DNA of 64,000 nt, taken from the sequence record PQ821640. One strand, 5' to 3'. The notes beneath the pieces were generated by a model. The model worked only from the letters and a program-made list of their open reading frames with translations. It was not told where the DNA came from and ran no database searches. Position numbers and translations under genes: made by a program. Origin of the DNA: Escherichia phage SD2. Shown here piece by piece: positions 12,845-13,444 of the stretch; positions within the stretch are counted from its first letter, which is position 1, and each line of letters opens with the position of its first letter.

Positions 12845-12923
12845 CGCGGGATAGAGGAGTCTGGTCGTCCTCGCCAGTTTCATATGCTGGAGATCATCGG
12901 TTCAAATCCAACTCCCGTTACCA
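12845..12923 (+). tRNA. tRNA with anticodon CAT, imperfect acceptor and T-stem
   Basis: Clean D-arm GAGG/CCTC and anticodon arm CCAGT-TTCATAT-GCTGG; T-loop TTCAAAT present but T-stem and acceptor pair poorly. Confidence 0.4.
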
Positions 12924-12942
12924 AATTTTGCAAGGAGATAAA

Positions 12943-13356
12943 GTGACAGCCAAGAAATCAGCCCAGTTGGGAATGAACGTAAGTACCGCTACGGGCAGGT
13001 TAACAAAAGATATAATGTGGCGACTGATAGTTCAGACAAACCAGAACATGTGCTTTCATTGCGGTAAAGAAATGACGAGAGAAGACTTCTCTATCGAGCA
13101 CAAAGTTCCTTGGTTGGATAGTGAAAACCCACAAGACTTATTTTTTGACTTGGACAATATTGCTTTCAGTCACTTATCCTGTAATGCTGCCGCAGCACGT
13201 AAGCCGAACAAAGGTATTATTCCTCATGGAACATCATCAGGATATGATACACACAAATGTAGGTGTGATGCATGCAAGGCAGCAAAAGCGGCAAGACGTA
13301 AAAAAGAATACACACCAGAAAAGCGCAGATCAACTTACGAGCGTACTGGTAAATAG
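12943..13356 (+). CDS. HNH homing endonuclease
   Basis: HNH core CFHCGKEMTREDFSIEHKVPW...N...H plus zinc-ligand cysteines; GTG 12943 behind AAGGAG (the ORF-track start 12787 would overlap two tRNAs). Confidence 0.7.
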   Translation: MTAKKSAQLGMNVSTATGRLTKDIMWRLIVQTNQNMCFHCGKEMTREDFSIEHKVPWLDSENPQDLFFDLDNIAFSHLSCNAAAARKPNKGIIPHGTSSGYDTHKCRCDACKAAKAARRKKEYTPEKRRSTYERTGK

Positions 13357-13369
13357 ATAATAGCCGGGT

Positions 13370-13444
13370 AGATTTAAAAGAGTATGGTACTCAATATGGC
13401 TCCAAACCATAGATCAAGGGGTTCGATTCCTCACCTTGCTGCCA
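13370..13444 (+). tRNA. tRNA-Trp-like (anticodon CCA), acceptor stem not formed
   Basis: Perfect anticodon arm TATGG-CTCCAAA-CCATA, T-loop GGTTCGATTCC, 3-prime CCA; the 5-prime strand cannot pair with the 3-prime acceptor strand. Confidence 0.35.

Follow-up and report, generated by a model that had tools for sequence, protein, structure and literature searches.

The tRNA cluster of Escherichia phage SD2 (sequence record PQ821640) raises the question of what a mobile endonuclease gene does to the transfer RNA (tRNA) genes among which it settles. In the 64,000 nucleotides (nt) of this genome that were analysed, hereafter the window, a gene for an HNH endonuclease lies between a tRNA gene with a CAT anticodon and a tRNA-like element with the Trp anticodon CCA (all window features given below are on the + strand). 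The window belongs to a phi92-like myovirus (Justusliebigvirus, Stephanstirmvirinae), and ARAGORN finds 15 tRNAs in the one-strand cluster (10089-13525) at whose 3' end the locus stands. Around the HNH locus, Salmonella phage UAB_1 is 99.0% identical over 1.3 kb, and the flanks are 98-99.5% identical to those of phi92, muut, PD06/PD114 and many others. A sequence-only reading had proposed that insertion of the endonuclease disrupted or rearranged the tRNA genes on both sides. Comparison with relatives bears this out for the CAT tRNA, which carries a hybrid junction at 12910, and not for the Trp element, which is the same in phages lacking the HNH gene. Overall, the data are probably best explained by a homing-type insertion of the HNH gene through gene conversion, which left a hybrid CAT tRNA on one side and an untouched, working tRNA-Trp on the other.

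The HNH gene (12943-13356; GTG start, TAG stop at 13354-13356) is an intact open reading frame (ORF) of 137 amino acids lying between the two RNA genes, as the sequence-only reading had it, and is preceded by a ribosome-binding site AAGGAG (12932-12937) 5 nt before the GTG. Its product scores 24.0 bits against the Pfam HNH family PF01844, for which the cut-off is 21.4, and its full-length match to phrog_23251 (E 8e-51) spans positions 3-141 of the 142 in the profile. The HNH catalytic motif is held in an intact ORF, as expected of a free-standing homing endonuclease, and the gene is predicted to encode an active enzyme of this type. Of 62 carriers of the full-length Trp element, UAB_1 alone possesses the HNH gene; it is absent at the same site in muut, phi92, VEcB, PD06 and other carriers, and about 55 close relatives show a 55-nt Met-Trp spacer in its place. 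Such presence or absence at one site among close relatives is the behaviour of a homing endonuclease gene. In a tblastn search of 50,697 phage records, the closest homologue is UAB_1 gp120 (97.8% identity) and the next best reaches 64%. Between the window and UAB_1, 8 of 414 nt differ in the HNH ORF and 6 of 1026 nt in the flanks (Fisher p = 0.03), an excess that could reflect relaxed constraint, or separate acquisitions from diverged donors sharing the junction. A consensus scan finds no sigma-70-like promoter between the CAT tRNA and the HNH start, and the gene is presumably expressed from the tRNA precursor transcript. The possibility that a promoter in the 55-nt spacer was lost on insertion was considered and rejected, the scan finding none in phi92 or in the window.

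The borders of the incoming DNA were mapped base by base against PD06, the nearest HNH-less relative. The two sequences differ at one position in 12100-12909 (810 nt) and then at five positions (12910, 12912 and 12918-12920) within the 11 nt of 12910-12920, adjoining the HNH cassette (Fisher p = 4e-9). Homology to PD06 is back at 13360, with one difference up to 13900. This clustering indicates that the foreign segment starts inside the tRNA gene, in the 3' strand of the T stem. The segment (12910-13359), which would be gene-converted, starts with the final 14 nt of the tRNA; then come 19 nt of spacer, in which the ribosome-binding site lies, the HNH ORF and some 3 nt beyond it. In HNH-less relatives its place is taken by the resident tRNA 3' end and the 55-nt Met-Trp spacer. 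Its tRNA part (12910-12923) covers the T-stem 3' strand (CCAAC), the acceptor 3' strand TCCCGTT, A73 and the CCA end, while the remainder of the CAT tRNA (12845-12909) is identical to the PD06-type allele.

The consequence of this junction for the CAT tRNA (12845-12923), which ARAGORN calls, was followed with Rfam, an allele table and folding. In its T stem, ATCGG (12896-12900) faces CCAAC (12908-12912) and only three of the five pairs form, with mismatches A.C at 49.65 and C.A at 51.63. On the Rfam model RF00005 this tRNA scores 33.2 bits, where the cut-off is 29, while its counterparts in five relatives reach 46.5-49.0 bits; the window allele lies 14-16 bits below theirs, and cmscan flags as non-standard the two T-stem positions and 1-72. 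The phi92 and muut alleles adopt a cloverleaf as their minimum-energy fold; the window allele does not. The poor T-stem pairing noticed in the sequence-only reading is therefore real, and both the covariance scoring and the alignment of relatives that it had suggested speak for damage on this side, the mismatched T stem being found in HNH carriers only. Indeed, ATCGG/CCAAC, one of the 11 alleles compared, occurs only in the window and UAB_1, both of which carry the HNH gene, and a BLAST search with the 61-nt junction in the 50,697 phage records gives a 100% match in UAB_1 only (next best 92.5%). The hybrid tRNA is probably impaired.

It can be asked whether the mismatches simply reflect the decay of a redundant tRNA gene by point mutation or by the shuffling of alleles, to which the endonuclease is unrelated. 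Other alleles are mosaics too, one of them (L006) joining a phi92-type T stem to a VEcB-type acceptor strand; phAPEC8 and Mt1B1_P17 annotate the CAT tRNA as 'Pseudo-CAT'; and a second CAT tRNA is present at 10089-10164. However, all ten other alleles keep five of five T-stem pairs through compensatory changes (ATCGG/CCGAT, GTAGG/CCTAC, GCAGG/CCTGC, ATTGG/CCAAT, GTTGG/CCAAC and GGAGG/CCTTC), which points to selection. Moreover, five changes lie within 11 nt beside the cassette as against one in the 810 nt upstream, and ATCGG/CCAAC is confined, among all the phage records searched, to the two HNH-carrying genomes. Ordinary decay thus appears improbable. As for the tRNA at 10089-10164, called tRNA-Met(CAT) by ARAGORN and the first of that name in the cluster, it has no Rfam tRNA match at any threshold used, and its T loop is ATTGTAA where TTCRANY is usual.

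The sequence-only reading had also seen poor pairing in the acceptor stem of the CAT tRNA; this part does not hold as damage. Positions 2-7 pair with 66-71, and position 1 is mismatched with 72 in all 11 alleles (C.U, C.C, U.C, A.C or U.U), as in initiator tRNAs. The D stem GAGG/CCUC has A-U at 11-24, and A11:U24 is a defining feature of bacterial initiator tRNA. Together with what we take to be an overall similarity to E. coli tRNA-fMet, these features indicate an initiator-like lineage. The anticodon stem CCAGU/GCUGG contains A29-U41, G30-C40 and U31.G39 in place of the three consecutive G:C pairs that initiators have at the base of this stem. The CAT tRNA is thus initiator-like in its acceptor and D stems, and is not filed as an initiator.

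We infer that the hybrid tRNA arose by gene conversion linked to the endonuclease rather than by unrelated recombination. The five substitutions, of putative donor type, directly adjoin the cassette and may be co-converted markers. In the proposed scheme, the HNH gene would have been brought in from another phage by endonuclease-stimulated gene conversion, and the copied tract would have carried the last 14 nt of the donor's tRNA(CAU) gene, ending inside the T loop. The resident ATCGG would then face a foreign CCAAC that matched GTTGG in the donor, producing the two T-stem mismatches. A donor tRNA allele GTTGG/CCAAC is plausible: a tRNA-Met with this T stem followed by TCCCGTTACCA is present in an unrelated IMG/VR phage (L014), with no HNH gene nearby. 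The HNH gene, apparently devoid of a promoter of its own, would be read from the tRNA precursor transcript, and its product, if active, would probably have the 3' region of tRNA-Met or the spacer as target. The same substitutions may shield the genome from its own enzyme if the latter recognises the T-arm region as T4 SegB does; in that event the tRNA may have been sacrificed for self-immunity. The tRNA-Trp was left untouched.

The closest known system is SegB, a free-standing endonuclease encoded in the tRNA cluster of phage T4, which recognises the T-arm motif GGTTCRANTCC and drives preferential inheritance and co-conversion of flanking markers of the tRNA region (PMC2330249). Like the segB gene, the HNH gene of the window is free-standing among phage tRNA genes and absent from close relatives. 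The SegB site includes the T-arm motif, and it is in that part of the upstream tRNA gene that the foreign tract of the window begins. Unlike SegB, which is a GIY-YIG enzyme, the window protein belongs to the HNH type (PF01844, phrog_23251). Cleavage, target site and homing were demonstrated for SegB and are predicted for the window protein, and a hybrid tRNA at the conversion boundary, as in the window, was not met in the passages on SegB that were consulted. HNH-type free-standing endonuclease genes also lie among the tRNA genes of phage T5, which offers a lead for comparison.

Relatives of the window protein have similar habits. Of 43 loci encoding them, 15 lie in tRNA clusters, and in 13 of these 15 the HNH gene starts 6-62 nt after a same-strand tRNA; the next tRNA is often only a few nt downstream, and the pattern holds for the closest relatives. 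In Felixounavirus, 23 of 260 matching records cover at least 80% of a BPS17W1 query containing tRNA-Tyr, the HNH gene and tRNA-Asp, which implies that the HNH gene is present at that site. The BPS17W1 cassette (L017:1180-1688) holds a strongly divergent tRNA-Asp allele, as compared with mio (L130) and bumzen (L131), and phage NJ12 (L129) has neither the HNH gene nor tRNA-Asp. The mobile unit in this genus appears, from these comparisons, to be the endonuclease plus a tRNA gene. The idea that the family always breaks the upstream tRNA fails here, since tRNA-Tyr is intact in BPS17W1 and a divergent tRNA-Asp allele is carried instead. A different HNH endonuclease gene is found between tRNA-Gln and tRNA-Pro in VEcB (L004:732-1091) and in ALITA; the corresponding site is empty in the window.

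Several observations weigh against conversion by the endonuclease. The donor genome was not found: apart from UAB_1, tblastn in the 50,697 phage records gave at most 64% identity, a protein-guided scan of IMG/VR returned HNH relatives of at most 53%, and a search with the exact pattern of the foreign tRNA 3' end returned a single unrelated tRNA-Met only. The 3' half of the CAT tRNA differs from the phi92 allele at one base, and the same outcome would follow, with no endonuclease involved, from simple recombination of two alleles in co-circulation and a single mutation. Finally, the left boundary of the BPS17W1 cassette lies after the upstream tRNA and not inside it.

On the other side of the HNH gene, the question is whether the Trp element was damaged at all. 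The sequence-only reading held that its 5' acceptor strand could not pair with the 3' strand. This is not the case: AGCCGGG (13362-13368) pairs at six of seven positions with CCTTGCT (13434-13440) and covaries with it in relatives, the true 5' strand lying 9 nt upstream of its place in a standard cloverleaf. The whole is a non-canonical tRNA-Trp(CCA) of 83 nt (13362-13444), as delineated from alignments, pair counts and ARAGORN calls after deletion. Following the 5' acceptor strand come an 11-nt connector (13369-13379), the D arm GAGT-ATGGT-ACTC (13380-13392), the anticodon arm (13395-13411, with the anticodon CCA at 13402-13404), the variable loop (13412-13416), the T arm (13417-13433), the acceptor 3' strand, G73 (13441) and the encoded CCA end (13442-13444). 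All four helices are present in the window, with 6/7 acceptor, 4/4 D, 5/5 anticodon and 4/5 T-stem pairs. The connector, which varies between 9 and 11 nt across the family and has 11 nt in the window, takes the place of the two nucleotides (positions 8-9) of ordinary tRNAs. By eye, neither a longer D stem absorbing the connector nor a pairing of the connector with the variable loop or with positions 32-33 is consistent across the family. The D loop ATGGT and the T loop TTCGATT should be able to form a normal elbow.

The 83-nt sequence is identical in VEcB and in more than 20 other HNH-less phages, and one base differs in phi92, muut and PD06. The endonuclease therefore did not damage the Trp element, and on this side the alignment with HNH-less relatives, proposed in the sequence-only reading as a check, goes against disruption. 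The same reading had pointed to TGCAAGG (12929-12935), upstream of the HNH gene, as 6 of 7 complementary to the Trp acceptor 3' strand CCTTGCT, and had allowed that the match could be due to chance, given its overlap with the HNH ribosome-binding site. The match exists, and the caution was justified, the match not exceeding chance frequency: with at most one mismatch, AGCAAGG occurs 179 times in the window for 148.9 expected, that is, about 0.7 times per 500 nt on one strand, and a second TGCAAGG is found at 13273. The insertion could in principle have split or rearranged the Trp gene and left TGCAAGG upstream as its displaced 5' acceptor strand, a view to which the complementarity lends some colour, as does the fact that the Trp element is not called by ARAGORN and does not reach the Rfam cut-off. 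We regard it as scarcely credible. HNH-less relatives have the same Trp element without TGCAAGG at that position, the contiguous strand at 13362-13368 pairs and covaries with the 3' strand, and the 7-mer, expected by chance at the frequency just given and recurring at 13273, is part of the ribosome-binding region. In addition, the 420 nt between the 7-mer and the Trp element are almost all ORF, with no room for a self-splicing intron. Unlike a split or intron-interrupted tRNA, the Trp element is contiguous, complete and identical without the insertion, and TGCAAGG as a displaced acceptor strand was rejected as a chance match.

The structure was then compared across 14 distinct sequences from Stephanstirmvirinae, Vequintavirinae and Ounavirinae, aligned to the model. 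Changes on both sides of a pair are seen at five of the seven pairs in the acceptor stem, all four in the D stem, four of the five in the anticodon stem and one of the five in the T stem. In this set, 90.8% of the cells are paired as compared with 45-57% for slid partners, and the covariation score is reached by none of 500 shuffles. It should be noted that an alignment fitted to the model favours the structure; a MAFFT alignment of 10 sequences gives the same picture, with an acceptor helix 90% paired and three two-sided changes. Other points also count against a working tRNA, namely the C4.U69 mismatch and the unpaired 49.65 of the window and a sub-cut-off Rfam score. Two sequences have a TTAGATT T loop (C56 to A), and the same two are without the second G of the D loop (TGTT/GTGTC for TGG). 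If the loops are in register, this would fit a replacement of G19:C56 by U19:A56 and would support a normal elbow.

The Trp element fails to qualify as a canonical tRNA with standard tools: it escapes ARAGORN, and its Rfam score of 22.9 bits falls short of the cut-off of 29, in an alignment that treats it as having no D arm. A complete cloverleaf is obtained when the start is placed at 13362. After deletion in silico of 5-9 connector bases, ARAGORN calls tRNA-Trp(cca) from the proposed 5' end in nine of nine sequences. Should the Rfam alignment be right, the mature RNA would be a 64-nt D-armless tRNA starting at 13381, with AGUAUGG as 5' acceptor strand. This strand does pair at six of seven positions in the window, and it is the one chosen by cmscan. 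Across relatives, however, the acceptor helix of the D-armless fold is 71% paired with one two-sided change, as against 90% and three to five two-sided changes for the upstream strand, and the bases that it uses form a covarying D stem instead. On this comparison the D-armless fold was rejected, and we hold it to be very unlikely.

Distant copies extend the distribution to Klebsiella phages, Hafnia phages and LPML1 (Ounavirinae), Pectobacterium POP15, Seunavirus (PVP-SE1, SalP219), Mydovirus BIS47, Av-05 and SSBI34. The element is annotated in none of the Justusliebigvirus, Klebsiella and Ounavirinae records among the matches listed, and in phi92 (t016) and SarahDanielle (_94) the tRNA numbering or locus tags skip a number at the Trp site. 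In the PVP-SE1 record (GU070616.1, 64638-64718), an 81-nt homologue is annotated as tRNA-Trp. The SalP219 copy, identical to it, scores 67 bits with the covariance model built here. The PVP-SE1 tRNA-Trp shares the architecture of the window element: its acceptor stem has 7 base pairs, the connector measures 9-10 nt, the D arm is short, and the CCA anticodon and G73 are present. It differs by G1-C72 for A1-U72, a 3-nt D loop and C31.A39. Its record gives the product name alone, and the unusual structure is unmentioned. A full-text literature search found no description of a long-connector phage tRNA-Trp, though the PVP-SE1 genome paper might discuss it. Other tRNA-Trp genes of IMG/VR phages measure 71-77 nt, as compared with 81-83 nt for the long-connector class. 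Animal mitochondrial tRNAs lacking an arm and allo-tRNAs (8/4 or 9/3 acceptor/T; PMC5389517), which are working or candidate tRNAs, likewise depart from the 7/2/4 geometry and escape standard finders. Those RNAs shorten or re-partition helices, whereas the window tRNA-Trp has helices of normal length and 7-9 extra unpaired connector bases.

Does this RNA decode tryptophan? For tryptophanyl-tRNA synthetase (TrpRS), the CCA anticodon and G73 are major identity elements and A1:U72 and G5:C68 minor ones, and the contacts described for the bacterial enzyme are with the anticodon and the acceptor arm (PMC12135181). The Trp element carries these determinants: the CCA anticodon, the 7-nt loop of CUCCAAA type, G73 and the encoded CCA end are invariant (14/14 for CCA and G73), A1:U72 is found in 12 of 14 sequences and G5 in 13 of 14, usually as G5.U68. 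Because the elements read by TrpRS are kept, the RNA most likely works as a Trp-decoding tRNA; it would be processed and charged, with the 11-nt connector looped out. No other Trp tRNA was found in the window.

A less likely alternative, to which we nevertheless give some weight, is that the element is a pseudogene in slow decay, or else a structured RNA with no decoding role, such as a decoy, processing signal or regulator. It would account for the sub-cut-off Rfam score, the lack of an ARAGORN call and the near absence of annotation; no bacterial tRNA known to work has a comparable 11-nt connector, C4.U69 is mismatched in 8 of 14 sequences and 49.65 is unpaired in 11 of 14. Compensatory changes in all four helices and the fit to a G19:C56 to U19:A56 exchange are, however, hard to explain for a pseudogene. 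The invariant CCA anticodon, CUCCAAA loop, G73 and CCA end are what a chargeable tRNA-Trp needs, and the tRNA sets, broad in other respects, were found to contain no further Trp tRNA. The Trp element is thus most likely an intact, conserved and oddly shaped tRNA. It is more doubtful that its 9-11 looped-out bases are, in a charged and translating tRNA, a functional adaptation and not tolerated baggage. In such a case, the connector could serve as a handle for a phage or host factor, or as an escape from an agent acting on the host's single tRNA-Trp.

The remainder of the transcription unit was also inspected. An ordinary tRNA-Ile(GAU) (13450-13525; ARAGORN; Rfam 57.3 bits) is the last of the cluster, and a terminator-like hairpin followed by a T run (13639-13657, from the consensus scan) closes the tRNA/HNH unit. 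Between them lies a conserved stretch of about 80 nt (13526-13605), also found in phAPEC8 (L124:490-575) and in a further record (L005), and placed directly after tRNA-Met in Phapecoctavirus. It has no Rfam match and weak fold z-scores (-0.9, -1.9), and could be a small RNA or a degenerate tRNA-like element.

Two further genes of the cluster are atypical or inconsistently named. At 10463-10544, a tRNA-like gene with anticodon UCU reaches 40 bits with Rfam, is missed by ARAGORN and is annotated in none of the records examined. It has only 4 nt at the place of the D arm and a variable region of about 22 nt with a CCGA-GUAA-UUGG hairpin. Homologues are found in BPS17W1 (L017:2689-2770) and at L047:1702-1783, and comparison of the three copies reveals compensatory changes in both the acceptor and the anticodon stem. 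The tRNA with anticodon GAA at 12593-12667 is tRNA-Phe according to ARAGORN (Rfam 49 bits); it is flagged as a pseudogene and appears as Phe, Glu or Leu in three GenBank records. In the extended tRNA cluster of a phi92-like relative (an IMG/VR contig of 148,739 bp; L039:9301-9375), ARAGORN finds a tRNA with anticodon CUA, labelled Pyl, which is a potential amber suppressor.

When the region 12400-13700 is used as a BLAST query, parts of it find matches of at least 80% identity in 563 phage records, among them those of T4-like (Tequatrovirus), Yersinia and Klebsiella phages; this suggests that near-identical tRNA genes are common to unrelated phage groups. Several records named 'Campylobacter phage' (A150, C3 and others) are about 99% identical to the coliphage sequence.

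By analogy with SegB, the endonuclease part of this locus would be ordinary, a well-known kind of behaviour carried out with an HNH enzyme, and the hybrid tRNA is a tidy but minor consequence of it. The long-connector tRNA-Trp is the least expected item and, as a structural variant, modestly novel; the gene had not gone entirely unrecognised, since the PVP-SE1 homologue was already named tRNA-Trp. At the level of sequence, the locus would illustrate how an endonuclease of homing type can remodel the tRNA cluster of a phage. A conversion tract that ends within a 79-nt gene would bring together T-stem strands from different alleles, so that RNA genes may be damaged in this way and not just shuffled. 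The conserved tRNA-Trp goes unannotated in almost all of about 100 phi92-, rV5- and FelixO1-related records examined, many of which are phage-therapy candidates, and their tRNA inventories are accordingly undercounted. If the tRNA-Trp is functional, the connector between acceptor and D stem can be expanded about fivefold, which bears on the rules of tRNA folding and on the design of orthogonal tRNAs. If, in addition, the connector were adaptive, the tRNA-Trp would represent a structural class new among the functional tRNAs of bacterial viruses.

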